The position numbers and the translations under genes were made by a program. The notes beneath the pieces were generated by a model, which had not been told where the DNA came from, did no database searches, and was given only the letters and a program-made list of their open reading frames with translations. From sequence record PZ452582.1: a stretch of DNA of 64,000 bases. One strand, given 5' to 3'. This document shows positions 16,190-50,194 of the stretch, in pieces (the stretch's first letter is position 1; every line of letters starts with the position of its first letter). This DNA is from a phage.

Positions 16190-16711
16190 ATGTTTATTTC
16201 AAGTGAAAGCGGTTTAATTCGTGTTGAATTTAAAAATGACATCTTTCTTAGTCAAGGAGATGATATTATTAAAATGAGTTATGACGAAATCAAGAAAATT
16301 TGTCATACTCTTGAAAGCCGTGGAAAAGTAAATGCTGTTATTGACATCGGTGATTTATGGGTAACACTTTATGAAGTATCCGAAGGATTTAACATTGAAG
16401 ATGAAAATAACATTTTAGCTATTGATAAAAGAAGTGATTTGTTTGATGTATTAAAAGTTTATGAACAGTCAAACGGTGGAAGAAAAGCTGTATTGATTTA
16501 TCAAAAACCACATTCGTGTGGAACTGCTTCAATCATTTCAAATATTGAAGGCGAAGTTGATACTTATATGTGTGTTTTAAAAGCCGGTGGTGACCGTCAT
16601 CCGGATTTTATTTCTATTCGTCAAAACAATGGAGAAATTTCATTATCAAAATCAGAAGCTGAAGCTATGATTAAGTATTTAACAACCGTTACGCCTTCAA
16701 TGAAAGGATAA
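16190..16711 (+). CDS. hypothetical protein (173 aa), paralog of 15638-16183
   Basis: SD gtgagga; shared motifs with upstream gene. Confidence 0.6.
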   Translation: MFISSESGLIRVEFKNDIFLSQGDDIIKMSYDEIKKICHTLESRGKVNAVIDIGDLWVTLYEVSEGFNIEDENNILAIDKRSDLFDVLKVYEQSNGGRKAVLIYQKPHSCGTASIISNIEGEVDTYMCVLKAGGDRHPDFISIRQNNGEISLSKSEAEAMIKYLTTVTPSMKG

Positions 16712-20522: not shown

Positions 20523-20577
20523 CCGCTTTATACCAAGGATGGTATAATGGTTCTAAGCCCTTTTAATTGAGATTATT

Positions 20578-20985
20578 ATGAAACAGTTGATAATTAAAAG
20601 ATTGAATTTATTGATATGTTGTTTATGCGTAGTAGTTGCATATGGTTATTATGCTATTAATGATTATATGCATTATAAAGATTATGATGTTACTGTAGTT
20701 AATACCCTTACAGGAACTCAAGGAAAGGGGTCTAGTTTATCGTTTATTGCCGTATATGAACTCAAAGACGGCTATAGATTTAGCGAATATATTTCGCCAG
20801 AGATGTATTCATCAATAGAAAAAGGCGATAATATTACTGTAAGTTTACGTCCTTTCGACGTAAAACAGACATTGTTTGATAATATTGTTTGGTTCTTTGG
20901 AATGGTATTAGTTCAATCTGTGTGTGGTGCTTATATAGTCTGTTCCATCTTATTCTGTATATTTAGTAAAATTGAAATTGAGTGA
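20578..20985 (+). CDS. membrane protein (135 aa)
   Basis: N- and C-terminal hydrophobic helices. Confidence 0.55.
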   Translation: MKQLIIKRLNLLICCLCVVVAYGYYAINDYMHYKDYDVTVVNTLTGTQGKGSSLSFIAVYELKDGYRFSEYISPEMYSSIEKGDNITVSLRPFDVKQTLFDNIVWFFGMVLVQSVCGAYIVCSILFCIFSKIEIE

Positions 20986-22965: not shown

Positions 22966-23967
22966 ATGACTCGTAACGAATATATCAAATCATTCAATAG
23001 CGTTATTGATGATAAAGCTATACCGATGTTTGGCCAAAATAGCGTTCTTTCTATTATCAATCAATGGCTCAATAGTGTTGATGCAGGTATTGTTTCTTCT
23101 GCTAAATTTATTCATGAAATTCGTAAAATTTCTAGCCGTGTAGATAAAGATAATATCAAGAAAACTTTTAAAGAGTCTCGTCTTCTTTCATATTTGGTTA
23201 ATCGGGATATTCTAGGTAATTTTGGGAAAGAAATTAAACGAACCAAAGATGTAGTAGGATATAATTGGTTCGGTGATGTTAATTCTTATCATCTTAATAA
23301 TAAAGAAGACCCTGAGAATATTTTTACTCGTCGTTGGATTAGTAATTTCAGACTTTTCAAAGGACAGATTCTAAAATCAGCTTCTAAATTATGTTATGGC
23401 GATTATCGTCAAATTCATCCTTTGGCTTCTGATATGATTATCATAAAAGAATATGAACTTGATAAAAATAAAGTATCTATTTTTGTGAATTATGGATTTT
23501 TTACACCAGAAACTAACCAAAAGAACATTAATAAATTTTTCTCAATTGCTAGCACTATAACTCGTCAATTAGAGACCGCATTACTTTGTATGGAAACAGT
23601 AGAAAATATTCATACATATCCTTTTAAGAATATATGCGGCTGGGAAGGATATAAAATTGTAATTAGTCTTCGTGAAGTAAAGTGCGCGTACTCACCGACT
23701 AATAAAGAAATTTACCAACAAAAATGTGAGGAAATTGTGAATACTCCTAAAGAAGAAACTACCCTTGAGGAACTAATGGATAATCTTGATGATTCGCCTG
23801 AACCGGCAGAAATTCGTCCAGAAGTTATTGCACTAGAAAAAGCTTATAAAGAAGTTCTAGAAATTTCTAATAAAGCGCAGAAAGAATATGAGCAGGCTAA
23901 AAAGATTTGGGAAGAATCCGTTAATCGTCTTGATCGTCTTGAACAAGCTTTACAGTTAATTAAGTAA
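22966..23967 (+). CDS. hypothetical protein with C-terminal coiled coil (333 aa)
   Basis: ATG with SD gaggag; track ORF began at 22915 inside the promoter. Confidence 0.6.
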   Translation: MTRNEYIKSFNSVIDDKAIPMFGQNSVLSIINQWLNSVDAGIVSSAKFIHEIRKISSRVDKDNIKKTFKESRLLSYLVNRDILGNFGKEIKRTKDVVGYNWFGDVNSYHLNNKEDPENIFTRRWISNFRLFKGQILKSASKLCYGDYRQIHPLASDMIIIKEYELDKNKVSIFVNYGFFTPETNQKNINKFFSIASTITRQLETALLCMETVENIHTYPFKNICGWEGYKIVISLREVKCAYSPTNKEIYQQKCEEIVNTPKEETTLEELMDNLDDSPEPAEIRPEVIALEKAYKEVLEISNKAQKEYEQAKKIWEESVNRLDRLEQALQLIK

Positions 23968-24019: not shown

Positions 24020-24943
24020 ATGAAAACTCGTAAACATTATATTGATTATTTTGACAGTCTTATTACTAAACACCGTAATTATCAGATCGGACACAGAGCA
24101 GTAATCAATAATATTCTTCGTGATTTTTTAGACTATATTGGATGGGAAAACCATATTTGTAAAGATACACAAAATGCGTATTCACATTCTCTTGGTTCTT
24201 TGCTCGAGTGGTTCAAACGTTCCCGATTACTATCTTCTGTGATAGCTGTTAATAATGTTAAAAAATTTATGTATCCAAGCTACATTGAGACTAATGTATC
24301 AAATGCTAATGTTGTTACATTTAATATTATTAATGACGTGAAAAGAACTTATTTAGAAGAATGGTTTTCTAAAAATAGTAAAGAAAAATTTGCTAGTGAG
24401 TTTTCACACGAATTTAATAATAATGTGAATATGCTTTTTAAGCATTCTCGTAGACTGTTTTGTCATGGCGATGACCGTACTATTAATGTAAATGTAAAAG
24501 ATTGGGTTACGGCTAAATTCATTCCATCGCAGAATGGACCAGTTGAATTGTCAATTATTGTTTGTGCTCCACATGAAATATATAAAAATCTTCCATATAT
24601 GAAACCATGCGAAGCTAATAAACATAATAAAACGATTCGTTCTTTGACTTATAATCTTCGTACGTTATTGTCTAAAATGGACGTAGTTGAATCCTTTGAT
24701 GATAATACAAATTATGGTCTTTCACTGTTTGAAACTAAAATTGTTATTAAGTTAAAGGACCCTAGTAAATTTAAACCTACACCAAAGCCCAATCATGGGA
24801 ATGATACTATGAAAGAAGAACGCGAATATCTCAGTGCTCGTTTGATTGAAGTTGAAAAACAGATTGAAGAGCATACTAAAGTTCTTAAGGCTTTAACAGC
24901 CAAAGCAAATGGTTTACGTGATGCTATTGAGGTACTGAAATGA
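24020..24943 (+). CDS. hypothetical protein with C-terminal coiled coil (307 aa)
   Basis: SD gagaag; C-terminal coiled coil. Confidence 0.6.
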   Translation: MKTRKHYIDYFDSLITKHRNYQIGHRAVINNILRDFLDYIGWENHICKDTQNAYSHSLGSLLEWFKRSRLLSSVIAVNNVKKFMYPSYIETNVSNANVVTFNIINDVKRTYLEEWFSKNSKEKFASEFSHEFNNNVNMLFKHSRRLFCHGDDRTINVNVKDWVTAKFIPSQNGPVELSIIVCAPHEIYKNLPYMKPCEANKHNKTIRSLTYNLRTLLSKMDVVESFDDNTNYGLSLFETKIVIKLKDPSKFKPTPKPNHGNDTMKEEREYLSARLIEVEKQIEEHTKVLKALTAKANGLRDAIEVLK

Positions 24944-41238: not shown

Positions 41239-42198
41239 ATGATTACCGTAAATGAAAAAGAACACATTCTTGAACAGAAATATCGTCCATCTACTATCGA
41301 TGAATGTATTCTTCCCGCCTTTGATAAAGAAACCTTTAAATCTATTACAAGTAAAGGTAAGATTCCACATATTATTCTTCATTCTCCTTCTCCAGGAACA
41401 GGTAAAACAACTGTAGCAAAAGCATTGTGTCATGATGTAAATGCTGATATGATGTTTGTGAATGGATCAGATTGTAAAATTGATTTCGTTCGTGGTCCTT
41501 TGACTAATTTTGCCAGTGCAGCTTCATTTGATGGTCGTCAAAAAGTAATCGTTATTGATGAATTTGACCGCTCAGGGTTAGCAGAGTCTCAGCGACATCT
41601 TCGTTCCTTTATGGAAGCTTATAGTTCAAACTGTAGTATTATTATTACTGCTAACAATATTGATGGTATTATTAAACCGCTTCAGTCACGCTGCCGAGTT
41701 ATTACGTTCGGTCAACCGACCGATGAAGATAAAATTGAAATGATGAAGCAGATGATTCGTCGATTGACTGAAATCTGCAAGCATGAAGGAATTGCTATAG
41801 CTGATATGAAAGTTGTAGCAGCTTTGGTTAAAAAGAATTTTCCTGATTTTCGTAAAACTATTGGCGAGCTCGATAGTTATTCATCTAAAGGTGTTTTGGA
41901 TGCTGGTATTTTATCACTGGTTACTAACGATCGTGGTGCTATTGATGATGTTCTTGAGTCTCTCAAAAATAAAGATGTTAAACAACTCAGAGCTTTAGCA
42001 CCAAAATATGCAGCCGATTATTCGTGGTTCGTGGGTAAACTTGCCGAAGAAATCTATTCACGTGTAACTCCACAGAGTATTATTCGTATGTACGAAATTG
42101 TCGGCGAAAATAATCAGTATCATGGTATTGCAGCTAATACTGAATTGCATCTAGCTTATCTTTTCATTCAATTAGCATGCGAAATGCAGTGGAAGTGA
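41239..42198 (+). CDS. 44: clamp loader large subunit gp44
   Basis: 319 aa from ATG 41239 (SD gagga); Walker [10 protein letters not shown]. Confidence 0.95.
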
Positions 42199-42764: not shown

Positions 42765-43133
42765 ATGATTGAAATTACTCTTAAAAAACCTGAAGATTTT
42801 CTGAAAGTAAAAGAAACTTTGACTCGTATGGGAATTGCTAATAATAAAGATAAAGTTCTGTATCAGTCCTGTCATATTCTTCAGAAAAAAGGACTATACT
42901 ATATCGTTCATTTTAAAGAAATGCTTCGTATGGATGGTCGCCAAGTTGAAATGACAGAAGAAGATGAAGTTCGTCGTGATTCGATTGCATGGCTGTTAGA
43001 AGATTGGGGACTGATTGAAATCGTTCCTGGTCAAAGAACTTTTATGAAAGATTTAACTAATAACTTCCGAGTTATTTCTTTTAAACAAAAACATGAATGG
43101 AAACTCGTTCCTAAATATACGATTGGTAATTAA
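42765..43133 (+). CDS. regA: translational repressor RegA
   Basis: 122 aa between 62 and 43; matches T4 RegA size and context. Confidence 0.9.
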   Translation: MIEITLKKPEDFLKVKETLTRMGIANNKDKVLYQSCHILQKKGLYYIVHFKEMLRMDGRQVEMTEEDEVRRDSIAWLLEDWGLIEIVPGQRTFMKDLTNNFRVISFKQKHEWKLVPKYTIGN

Positions 43134-47355: not shown

Positions 47356-48096
47356 ATGATTAGTGACTCTATGACAGTTGAAGAAATCCGTCTTCATTTG
47401 GGGCTTGCATTAAAAGAAAAAGATTTCGTAGTTGATAAAACCGGTGTTAAAACTATTGAAATTATTGGCGCATCATTTGTAGCAGATGAACCGTTTATTT
47501 TTGGTGCTCTTAATGATGAATACATTCAGCGTGAACTTGAATGGTATAAATCTAAGAGCTTGTTCGTTAAAGATATTCCAGGTGAAACACCGAAGATTTG
47601 GCAACAAGTAGCATCTTCTAAAGGCGAAATTAACTCGAACTATGGTTGGGCTATTTGGTCAGAAGATAACTATGCCCAGTATGATATGTGTTTAGCTGAA
47701 CTTGGTCAAAATCCTGATTCTCGACGTGGTATCATGATTTATACTCGTCCATCCATGCAATTTGACTACAATAAAGATGGTATGTCAGATTTCATGTGTA
47801 CTAATACAGTACAGTACCTGATTCGTGATAAGAAAGTCAATGCAGTAGTAAGCATGCGCTCAAATGACGTGGTCTTCGGATTCCGTAATGATTATGCATG
47901 GCAAAAATACGTATTAGATAAATTAGTATCTGATTTGAATGCCGGCGATTCATCTCGTCAGTATAAAGCAGGTTCTATTATATGGAATGTCGGAAGTCTT
48001 CATGTATATTCTCGTCATTTTTACTTGGTTGATCATTGGTGGAATACTGGCGAAACTCATATTGTGAAAAAAGACTATAAAGGTGAGTGGAAATGA
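47356..48096 (+). CDS. 42: dCMP hydroxymethylase gp42
   Basis: 246 aa thymidylate-synthase-like fold; position between imm and glycosyltransferase. Confidence 0.95.
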   Translation: MISDSMTVEEIRLHLGLALKEKDFVVDKTGVKTIEIIGASFVADEPFIFGALNDEYIQRELEWYKSKSLFVKDIPGETPKIWQQVASSKGEINSNYGWAIWSEDNYAQYDMCLAELGQNPDSRRGIMIYTRPSMQFDYNKDGMSDFMCTNTVQYLIRDKKVNAVVSMRSNDVVFGFRNDYAWQKYVLDKLVSDLNAGDSSRQYKAGSIIWNVGSLHVYSRHFYLVDHWWNTGETHIVKKDYKGEWK

Positions 48097-48935
48097 TTCA
48101 ATTCGTAATTCCAAGTTATCAGCGTGTCAGGGCAGTTTCTGCCCTTGATATGTTTCCGACTGATTATGAACCGCATATTGTAGTGCGTGAACATGAAGAA
48201 AAAGCTTATCATGACGCTTATGGGTCTAGAGCTAAAATTATAACTATTCCTGATGATGTAAACGGAATTGCCGGTACTCGTAAAGCAATTACCGATATAT
48301 ATGCAGGTCAACGAATCTGGATGATTGACGATGATACTACTATTCGTATGAGTTCAATGCGAAAAAGAGATGATCGTCGTTGCGTAGATAAAGTCAATCA
48401 ATTGACTCGTGAACAGTTCTATGAATTGATTCAATATGTTGAGGATGCCATGGATTGCGGGTATTATCATGGCCATGCTCGTCTACCTATTTTTAAAATT
48501 ACTTCATCTTGGGGTAATTATCGTGAAAATTCATATGGATTCACGAATACATGGTATGACCTCGGAAAACTTACGACAGAACAAATTGGGTATGGAAAAA
48601 TTGATTTATGCGAAGATATGTATGCATTTCTCAATTTAATTAATCAAGGTTATCCGCATTTGGCCTTGTTCAAATATCTAGTTGTATCTGGAAAAGCACA
48701 AGCTCCTGGCGGGTGCAGTTCAATTCGTAGTAATTCTAAACATAATAGAGCGCTTGAGCAGATTAATAGAGAGTTTCCAGAGCAAGCTCGTTGGAAAACT
48801 TCTAATATTGAAAAACGAAAATCGTTGGGTGAAGAAGACGAACCATTAAAGGTTCTTCGCATGTGCGTTTCACGTAAAGAAAAATCAGAAGCATTTCATA
48901 AGTTTAATGCTATTCATCCAATAGCAGTTGATTAA
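48093..48935 (+). CDS. GT-A fold glycosyltransferase (DxD motif) at the T4 beta-gt position; not T4 beta-gt
   Basis: WMIDDDTT DxD motif; ATGA-coupled to gene 42; 280 aa vs 351 aa for T4 beta-gt. Confidence 0.6.
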   Translation: MIQFVIPSYQRVRAVSALDMFPTDYEPHIVVREHEEKAYHDAYGSRAKIITIPDDVNGIAGTRKAITDIYAGQRIWMIDDDTTIRMSSMRKRDDRRCVDKVNQLTREQFYELIQYVEDAMDCGYYHGHARLPIFKITSSWGNYRENSYGFTNTWYDLGKLTTEQIGYGKIDLCEDMYAFLNLINQGYPHLALFKYLVVSGKAQAPGGCSSIRSNSKHNRALEQINREFPEQARWKTSNIEKRKSLGEEDEPLKVLRMCVSRKEKSEAFHKFNAIHPIAVD

Positions 48936-49012
48936 TGCCTAAATTTATTGTGTTATAATTACTCTATCTTTAACCAGTGAGGAAAATATAATGATGCCTA
49001 TGGAAAAAATGA

Positions 49013-50194
49013 ATGTCTATTGCAGATTTAAAATCCCGTTTGATTAAAGCTTCCACTTCTAAAATGACTGCTGAACTGACTACATCTAAATTCTTTAATG
49101 AAAAGGATGTAATTCGTACAAAAATTCCAATGCTTAATATTGCTATTTCTGGTGCGATTGATGGCGGCATGCAGTCTGGTTTAACTATTTTCGCAGGGCC
49201 TTCTAAACACTTTAAATCAAATATGTCTTTGACTATGGTTGCGGCATATTTGAACAAATATCCTGACGCGGTTTGTCTATTCTATGATAGTGAATTTGGT
49301 ATTACTCCAGCTTATTTGCGATCCATGGGAGTTGACCCGGAACGAGTAATTCATACGCCGATTCAGTCAGTTGAACAGCTGAAAATTGATATGGTGAACC
49401 AGCTTGAAGCTATTGAGCGTGGTGAAAAGGTTATTGTATTCATCGACTCAATTGGTAATATGGCTTCTAAGAAAGAAACGGAAGATGCCTTGAATGAAAA
49501 ATCTGTGGCAGATATGACTCGTGCTAAATCACTGAAGTCATTATTCCGTATTGTTACTCCTTACTTTAGCATTAAAAATATTCCATGTGTTGCGGTTAAC
49601 CATACAATTGAAACAATTGAAATGTTTAGTAAAACCGTGATGACAGGTGGTACAGGCGTAATGTATTCGGCTGATACTGTATTCATTATCGGTAAGCGTC
49701 AGATTAAAGATGGTTCTGATCTTCAGGGGTATCAATTTGTTCTAAATGTAGAAAAATCTCGTACCGTTAAAGAAAAAAGTAAATTCTTTATTGATGTTAA
49801 ATTTGACGGTGGTATCGATCCTTATTCTGGATTGTTAGATATGGCTCTAGAATTAGGATTTGTAGTAAAACCTAAAAATGGTTGGTATGCTCGTGAATTT
49901 CTTGACGAAGAAACCGGCGAGATGATTCGCGAAGAAAAATCTTGGCGTGCAAAAGATACTAACTGCACTACATTCTGGGGTCCTTTATTTAAGCATCAAC
50001 CATTCCGAGATGCTATTAAGCGTGCTTATCAGTTAGGTGCTATTGATAGTAATGAAATTGTTGAAGCGGAAGTTGATGAATTAATTAACTCAAAGGTTGA
50101 AAAATTTAAATCCTCAGAAAGTAAAAGTAAATCAGCAGCTGATTTAGAAACTGACCTCGAGCAGTTAAGTGATATGGAAGAATTTAATGAATAA
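49013..50194 (+). CDS. uvsX: recombinase UvsX (RecA-like)
   Basis: 393 aa, near-identical to recalled T4 UvsX over most of its length. Confidence 0.95.
   Translation: MSIADLKSRLIKASTSKMTAELTTSKFFNEKDVIRTKIPMLNIAISGAIDGGMQSGLTIFAGPSKHFKSNMSLTMVAAYLNKYPDAVCLFYDSEFGITPAYLRSMGVDPERVIHTPIQSVEQLKIDMVNQLEAIERGEKVIVFIDSIGNMASKKETEDALNEKSVADMTRAKSLKSLFRIVTPYFSIKNIPCVAVNHTIETIEMFSKTVMTGGTGVMYSADTVFIIGKRQIKDGSDLQGYQFVLNVEKSRTVKEKSKFFIDVKFDGGIDPYSGLLDMALELGFVVKPKNGWYAREFLDEETGEMIREEKSWRAKDTNCTTFWGPLFKHQPFRDAIKRAYQLGAIDSNEIVEAEVDELINSKVEKFKSSESKSKSAADLETDLEQLSDMEEFNE

Follow-up and report, generated by a model that had tools for sequence, protein, structure and literature searches.

A conserved start signal ahead of uvsX in T4-like phages and its possible role as a leader minicistron

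UvsX is the central recombinase of T4-type phages; it drives recombination-dependent replication, and its dosage relative to UvsY and gp32 matters. The locus considered here, in a 64,000-nucleotide (nt) stretch of phage DNA from sequence record PZ452582.1 (the window), raises the question of how translation of uvsX is initiated. The gene has a weak Shine-Dalgarno sequence (SD), and a better one opens an 18-codon upstream open reading frame (uORF) at ATG 48991, 22 nt 5' of the uvsX ATG at 49013, which it crosses in another frame. The first-pass annotation had located this arrangement and had proposed that uvsX translation is coupled to, or limited by, the uORF; its coordinates agree exactly with the sequence and the translation. 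On balance, we consider the uORF to be probably a cis-acting leader minicistron of the uvsX messenger RNA (mRNA), which feeds or gates uvsX translation. We infer from sequence comparison that the uORF is translated and that uvsX depends on it; the effect may be activating or limiting. Control of this kind, by uORF or minicistron coupling, is known; this element at uvsX appears undescribed in the searchable literature.

The start signal upstream of uvsX

The SD of the uORF, GTGAGGAAAA at 48977-48986, places GAGG 8 nt 5' of ATG 48991. Its duplex with the anti-SD has a calculated energy of -6.5 kcal/mol, as compared to -3.3 kcal/mol at the uvsX start, where only GGA is available, with an 8-nt spacer, and no strong independent SD is found. 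With a median of -5.7 kcal/mol for 73 long open reading frames (ORFs) of the window, the SD of the uORF is good, not exceptional, and that of uvsX is weak, falling in the lowest quarter. The contrast between a strong and a weak SD drawn in the first-pass annotation thus holds. Any SD-led short uORF running into the start is rare among the 112 long plus-strand ORFs of the window (4/112), and uvsX alone has an upstream GAGG but no SD of 4 nt in its own right. A single exact copy of the 17-mer GTGAGRAAAATATWATG is present in the window, and none in 100 shuffles. The uORF is called by no annotator in any record inspected.

For comparison, uvsX loci were gathered from IMG/VR and from GenBank phages. 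The 17-mer GTGAG(G/A)AAAATAT(A/T)ATG is near-invariant before uvsX in Tequatrovirus (T2-type), Gaprivervirus, Dhakavirus, Mosigvirus, Karamvirus, Moonvirus, Jiaodavirus, Marfavirus and Pseudotevenvirus. The whole leader, from the -10 element to the uvsX ATG, is recognisable in T2-type Tequatrovirus, Gaprivervirus (CJ20, VR20), Dhakavirus (Bp7), Mosigvirus (moha, FL18), Karamvirus (CW742, L017), Moonvirus (Moon), Jiaodavirus (KPV15), Marfavirus (Marfa), Erwinia phage Cronus and Proteus phage phiP4-3. Within the core TGAGnAAAATATwATG (48978-48993), 14 of the 16 positions are invariant among 14 representative leaders. In the same phages, the third-codon positions of uvsX are 8.4% invariant and exhibit a mean pairwise identity of 55%, and silent sites are saturated. 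In Pseudotevenvirus (RB43, Lw1 and many Cronobacter and Enterobacter phages), the exact 17-mer precedes a uvsX whose product is 57% identical, the upstream gene is that of DNA polymerase and not of a glucosyltransferase, and the body of the uORF is unrelated (ATG CGT GTA TAT AAA CCG GAA AAA TAA, adjoining the uvsX ATG). Among T2-type isolates, the SD and the first ATG are intact in all the variants inspected (8/8). Judged from these comparisons, the start signal is kept in at least a dozen T4-like phage groups, beyond chance, and since it survives saturated silent sites and a changed upstream gene, a neutral remnant would not be expected to last.

The same signal is used elsewhere. In IMG/VR, 26 of 120 occurrences of the 17-mer precede uvsX, and 82 of the other 94 open ORFs of at least 50 codons. 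In the window, GTGAGGAAAATATG, which is near-identical to the 17-mer, precedes long ORFs at 1795, 20993 and 46949, with close variants at 16190 and 61422. The 17-mer thus corresponds, on these counts, to the standard strong initiation region of these phages. Duplex energy, spacing, the 82/94 proportion and the 14/16 invariance all indicate, in silico, a functional initiation region at the uORF.

A second conserved element lies inside the uORF. ATGG at 49000-49003 is invariant in 14/14 leaders regardless of its frame relative to the first AUG. In the records of phages Moon and Marfa, the corresponding GGA/GGT is marked as the ribosome-binding site of uvsX, and in Cronobacter phage S13 a 3-codon, SD-led uORF begins at the equivalent ATGG.

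Variation of the uORF and placement of its stop

In contrast to its start signal, the uORF is variable in peptide, length and frame, comprising 3 to 32 codons in all three frames (Table 1). Most lineages exhibit a uORF of 3-9 codons with a stop between -6 and +6 of the uvsX ATG, and at least five unrelated sequence solutions put the stop at -6 to -2. This recurrent placement matches the textbook geometry of termination-reinitiation coupling, a logic that a review of T4 mobile elements sets out for UAAUGA overlaps, with a scanning window of about seven codons (PMC2988022).

Table 1. Forms of the uORF in the window and in related phages. Stop positions give the first base of the stop codon relative to the A of the uvsX ATG; L numbers are our handles for gathered loci.
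Lineage	Peptide or length	Sequence at the stop	Stop position
Karamvirus	METYGK	TAA TTA ATG	-6
Jiaodavirus	METYGI	TAA TGA ATG	-6
Proteus phiP4-3	MFVIFKG	TAA AAA ATG	-6
Moonvirus	MEINGKY	TGA ATG	-3
Pseudotevenvirus	MRVYKPEK, 8 codons	TAA ATG	-3
Cronobacter S13	MET	TAA ATG	-3
Marfavirus and others	MVTNGKY	TAATG	-2
Dhakavirus, Mosigvirus	MMPMEKYNV		+6
L011/L012	11 codons		+11
This window and Gaprivervirus	18 codons		+33
Erwinia Cronus	27 codons		+60
L028	32 codons		+78

The 18-codon form found in the window is derived, because its spacer is 22 nt and not 24 nt and because uvsX carries an ATTGCA insertion. This insertion, which is present in uvsX of T2-type Tequatrovirus and Gaprivervirus (MS-IA-DLKS), removes the TCTGA at which the uORF of Dhakavirus and Mosigvirus stops (+6), and thereby extends the uORF from 9 to 18 codons. 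A further source of variation is the A-run in GGAAAAAATGA (window 49004-49009), the length of which differs among T2-type isolates, each length corresponding to another uORF frame relative to uvsX. Six adenines are found in 332 records that are identical to the window over 48960-49030, seven in 11 records, including RB32 and RB33, which have a 13-codon uORF, and five in at least 2 records, in which MMPMEK is followed by TGAATG, the stop abutting the uvsX ATG. The stops of these A5, A6 and A7 forms lie at -3, +33 and +17, respectively. Some of the A-run variants could be homopolymer sequencing errors. The variation of peptide and frame, even among T2-type isolates, argues for a role of translation itself and not of its product.

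The strength of the uvsX SD was compared across 46 distinct uvsX 5' regions. The median is -3.3 kcal/mol in the 22 leaders with an SD-led uORF and -5.85 kcal/mol in the 24 without one (Mann-Whitney p = 2e-5, for related lineages and with no phylogenetic correction). This inverse relation between the presence of the uORF and the strength of the uvsX SD is suggestive.

The mechanism that we propose would start with a transcript whose 5' end, set by a predicted middle-type promoter, would lie about 25 nt 5' of the uORF ATG. Ribosomes would bind at GTGAGGAAAATATAATG, the conserved initiation region, which is free of structure, and after translating a few codons would terminate near the uvsX start, where they or their 30S subunits would reinitiate at the uvsX AUG with the help of the weak GGA 8 nt before it. 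An upstream site would thus supply ribosomes to a gene whose own SD is poor; initiating and translating would matter, and the peptide would be irrelevant. In T2-type Tequatrovirus and Gaprivervirus, the 22-nt spacer and the 6-nt insertion put the stop 32 nt past the uvsX AUG, so that ribosomes would have to scan backwards for coupling to occur, and besides feeding uvsX the uORF may partly block its start.

As for the earlier proposal that uvsX is coupled to or limited by the uORF, the tie between the upstream start site and uvsX is supported by the invariant SD and ATG, by the stops near the uvsX ATG and by the weak uvsX SD where the uORF is present. The 18-codon overlapping ORF and its peptide, from which the proposal was drawn, are not conserved, and their stop lies outside the usual reinitiation range.

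Alternative explanations

Several observations weigh against the leader minicistron. The uORF of the window does not stop until 32 nt past the uvsX AUG, beyond the reinitiation window of about seven codons that is cited for T4 (PMC2988022); most relatives (-6 to +6) and the natural A5 variant do have a stop near the start. The upstream SD of most genera is GUGAGA only, with a 3-nt GAG core, and a strong SD is therefore not general. The uvsX SD is weak and nevertheless correctly spaced, and independent initiation could take place at it. The conserved ATGG is only half explained, as its GG(A/T) fits the weak uvsX SD, whereas SD pairing does not account for the invariant AT. The lineages compared are related, so that counts and p-values overstate their independence. 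Finally, neither an account of a uORF or leader at uvsX nor usable ribosome profiling of T-even phages was found in the searchable literature.

A role opposite to feeding can be considered. Ribosomes reading through the uORF would block the uvsX start and would stop translating too far past it for reinitiation, and the uORF would be a brake or competitor capping UvsX in this lineage. In the window and in Gaprivervirus, the uORF indeed overlaps the uvsX start by 35 nt (stop at +33), long overlaps are also observed in Erwinia phage Cronus (+60) and L028 (+78), and coupling and scanning usually lower downstream expression, according to a review of T4 mobile elements (PMC2988022). Nevertheless, we regard this explanation as unlikely: the stop of most lineages is on or beside the uvsX ATG, which favours reinitiation, the uvsX SD is weak exactly where the uORF exists, which would be odd for a mere brake on an abundant recombination protein, and the A5, A6 and A7 forms shift the stop between -3, +33 and +17 with no apparent loss of viability. 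The invariant 17-mer could instead be chiefly an operator for a phage translational repressor, RegA being the obvious candidate, and repression of the minicistron would then shut off the coupled uvsX late in the prereplicative period. RegA binds an AU-rich sequence around the initiator AUG, and gene 44 is its best-studied recognition element. The window contains a 122-amino-acid (aa) ORF at 42765, which we take to be regA from the T4 gene order, and the uORF region GUGAGGAAAAUAUAAUG resembles the gene 44 region gaAUGAGGAAAUUAUG at 41239; moreover, conservation exceeds the SD core and the AUG, the A/U spacer being invariant too. This resemblance is unspecific, since GTGAGGAAAAT..ATG is generic in many genes of the window and in unrelated phages, and no link between RegA and uvsX was found in the searchable literature. 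We therefore hold a RegA operator to be quite unlikely as the chief function, and it would be compatible with the minicistron rather than exclusive of it.

If the upstream ribosome-binding site and its short ORF were chiefly an mRNA stabiliser, a bound or translating ribosome would shield the middle transcript from 5'-end-dependent decay, wherever the stop. The predicted transcript start only about 25 nt 5' of the uORF ATG would suit such a role, and indifference to the frame and length of the uORF fits a need for ribosome binding alone. This very unlikely explanation leaves the many independent stops at -6 to +6 and the weak uvsX SD unaccounted for, and in Pseudotevenvirus the stretch from an upstream hairpin to the SD is different. 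A chance ORF, or a functionless decaying remnant of a lost gene start or mobile-element insertion, might be expected at a locus that is the known insertion site of the segA homing endonuclease in T4; short ORFs are frequent in AT-rich DNA, and annotators pass this one over. It is disfavoured, to the point of being hardly credible, by the 14/16 invariant positions despite saturated silent sites, by the retention of the motif with a different upstream gene and 57% UvsX identity, and by its integrity in 8/8 T2-type variants. Least probable of all is the arrangement of T4 genes 25 and 38, a split ribosome-binding site, in which the distant SD would serve the uvsX AUG via an intervening hairpin. 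The SD is 30 nt from the uvsX AUG, which is near the distances known for genes 25 and 38; nevertheless, every lineage has a properly spaced AUG after the SD, and the leader, rich in A and U, is unstructured. Shuffled sequences fold just as stably (z = 0.23), neither a helix nor covariation emerged between the SD and the uvsX AUG when 14 leaders were analysed with RNAalifold, and the search of Rfam at E <= 10 returned no real family match, only two chance snoRNA hits. Given the lack of conserved structure, which speaks for the leader minicistron, split-site models of the gene 25/38 type and attenuator-type models were rejected. A peptide-dependent leader attenuator was also discarded on account of its differing peptides (MMPMEK.., METYGK, MEINGKY, MVTNGKY, MRVYKPEK, MET) and frames.

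Returning to the leader minicistron, a more far-reaching version can be imagined, to which we assign a low probability. The minicistron would be a dedicated, tunable gate setting UvsX dosage, its AU-rich start would be the target of a repressor such as RegA, and the A-run, by shifting the stop (-3/+33/+17), would provide heritable, slippage-prone variation of coupling. T4 would have lost this control on segA invasion, hence its having gone unnoticed.

The uvsX locus, the T4 exception and known systems

Across 48850-49150, phage RB51 matches the window at 100% identity, and T2, RB14 and hundreds of further T2-type Tequatrovirus records match it at 98-99.7%, which identifies the window, by sequence, as a T2-type Tequatrovirus. 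On the plus strand, gene 42 (47356-48096) and the beta-glucosyl-HMC-alpha-glucosyltransferase gene (ending at 48935) are followed by uvsX and by genes 40 and 41. The 77-nt intergenic region reads TAATGCCTAA-N11-TGtTATAAT-N17-GTGAGGAAAATATA-ATGATGCCTATGGAAAAAATGA-ATG(uvsX), and its features are given in Table 2.

Table 2. Features of the uvsX leader and of the uvsX 5' end in the window.
Feature	Position	Strand	Remarks
MotA-box-like TAATGCCTAA	48933..48942	+	8/10 match to wwwTGCTTtA; 11 bp 5' of the -10
Extended -10 TGtTATAAT, candidate middle-type promoter	48951..48959	+	-10 hexamer 48954-48959; predicted transcript start about 48966
uORF translation initiation region GTGAGGAAAATATAATG	48977..48993	+	SD GAGG 48979-48982, 8-nt spacer, ATG 48991
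uORF, 18 codons MMPMEKMNVYCRFKIPFD and TAA (49045-49047)	48991..49047	+	from sequence and translation; further in-frame ATGs at 48994, 49000 and 49009
Invariant ATGG(A)	49000..49004	+	GGA is the weak uvsX SD, 8-nt spacing
TGA in the uvsX frame, directly 5' of the uvsX ATG	49010..49012	+	out of the uORF frame here; the uORF stop in A5 and in 24-nt-spacing variants
uvsX, RecA-like recombinase, 393 aa	49013..50194	+	E = 2.9e-203 against the T4 UvsX structure 3io5; named uvsX in RB51 and others
6-nt insertion ATTGCA (Ile-Ala), uvsX codons 3-4	49019..49024	+	relative to T4 and most genera; from alignments

The identity of UvsX is secure from the structural match and from the naming of its homologues. 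The structure 3io5 covers only residues ~30-358 of T4 UvsX and is uninformative on the N-terminus; an N-terminal extension of uvsX is ruled out by the in-frame TGA at 49010-49012. On the minus strand, a 95-aa ORF with a TTG start (48970-49257) lies antisense to the leader and the 5' end of uvsX, and is annotated in phage CJ20 as the hypothetical protein CJ20_008. It is probably a spurious call, because the window exhibits no minus-strand ORF of at least 100 aa. Elsewhere in the window, another SD-led short ORF, of 7 codons (ATGGTTCTAAGCCCTTTTAATTGA, 20547-20570), ends 7 nt before the ORF at 20578-20985, which has a weak SD of its own.

T4 middle promoters comprise a MotA box wwwTGCTTtA located 12 +/- 1 bp 5' of a sigma-70 -10 element (PMC2988021), and the elements upstream of the leader make up a candidate promoter of this kind, with a predicted transcript start about 25 nt 5' of the uORF ATG. 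The record of phage Lutter annotates a promoter at the equivalent position, the -10 TATAAT is kept in relatives 17-21 nt 5' of the SD, and relatives carry better MotA boxes, e.g. TTAGCTTTA. A second promoter at the leader-internal TATAAT (48987-48992) was considered and rejected, as no -35 or MotA-box partner is found upstream of it. Two observations concern this region in other phages. In Enterobacter phage CW742 (L206 319-408), a 29-aa hypothetical protein with a TTG start is annotated between beta-gt and uvsX; it overlaps the uvsX promoter at its MotA-box/-10 region, and nothing equivalent is present in the window. In Pseudotevenvirus (L124, L160, L166 and L203), a GC-rich hairpin GGGGCAGAAATGCCCC about 45 nt 5' of the uORF ATG is followed by a T-run, by TATATAAAC and then directly by the 17-mer; this looks like the terminator of gene 43 followed by a promoter very near the SD.

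The comparison with the 5' region of T4 uvsX, which had been proposed along with the coupling, showed that the arrangement is absent from T4. There, segA and about 160 nt are inserted between the leader and uvsX; a leader homologue, ATCTTTAACCGGTGGAATAAATG, is still present after b-gt, and uvsX has its own, stronger SD (TAAGGT-N7-ATG). T4 is accordingly not homologous at this position and was set aside as a comparator for the leader. The mapped T4 starts are PuvsX at 23752, inside segA, and PsegA at 24460, in the end of b-gt (PMC2988021 Table 1). As PuvsX lies inside segA, the promoter predicted in the window is not the positional equivalent of the classical T4 PuvsX. The absence of the uORF arrangement from the searchable T4 literature is explained by the displacement of the leader by segA. 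The SegA cleavage site is reported to lie inside uvsX (PMC2988022).

Two further features are observed between b-gt and segA on the minus strand of the T4 record NC_000866 (L004). At ~3349-3275, ATCTTTAACCGGTGGAATAAATG opens an unannotated 24-codon ORF, MLGPLLLIIGLGLFAFWDFFCYID, which is strongly hydrophobic and lies on the PsegA transcript. At ~3262-3238, just 5' of the segA ATG, TTCATCGAATAGCAGTTGATTAATG is near-identical to window 48913-48937, i.e. to the 3' end of the T2-type beta-alpha-glucosyltransferase gene, whereas the T4 upstream gene is the unrelated b-gt. TTCATCGAATAGCAGTTGATTAATG looks like a recombination scar showing the origin of the segA cassette.

If the leader minicistron is real, it would be an unannotated control point for UvsX dosage in most T-even relatives, and the model phage T4 would be the exception, owing to a homing-endonuclease gene inserted into the leader. 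Annotators and phage engineers would be cautioned that the ~50 nt before uvsX are no dispensable spacer, and a compact natural coupling module would become available for testing models of bacterial reinitiation.

Among known systems, termination-reinitiation coupling is exemplified by the T4 clamp-loader genes 44/62 and by the UAAUGA at nrdA/mobE (PMC2988022). As in these T4 coupled pairs, the putative uvsX system comprises an upstream cistron with its own initiation region, a weak downstream SD and, in most relatives, a stop that overlaps or abuts the AUG (TAATG, TGAATG, TAAATG). In contrast to them, the upstream cistron of uvsX is an ORF of only 3 to 18 codons without a conserved product, and in the window its stop lies 32 nt beyond the AUG. 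Peptide-dependent leaders of the ermC, tnaC and trpL type likewise carry a short ORF 5' of a regulated gene; the uvsX leader differs from them in that it has no conserved peptide, stalling motif, alternative hairpins or terminator. With the split SD of T4 genes 25 and 38 it shares a strong SD some 30 nt away from the gene's start codon, but it lacks the hairpin and has a well-spaced AUG directly after the SD. The RegA operators of T4 (gene 44, rIIB) are similar in their AU-rich sequence with UGAGGAAA and the initiator AUG, in a T-even phage that encodes regA; this resemblance is nevertheless common to many ordinary initiation regions, and uvsX is no documented RegA target in the searchable literature. 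Leader minicistrons that drive a second cistron are known from engineered two-cistron systems and from natural short leader ORFs of bacteria. The uvsX leader resembles these in that its unstructured, AU-rich RNA carries a short first cistron that has a good SD and whose end meets the start of the gene proper, its predicted role being the delivery of ribosomes and not the making of a peptide. Unlike the engineered systems, the uvsX element is natural and is kept across at least a dozen phage groups.

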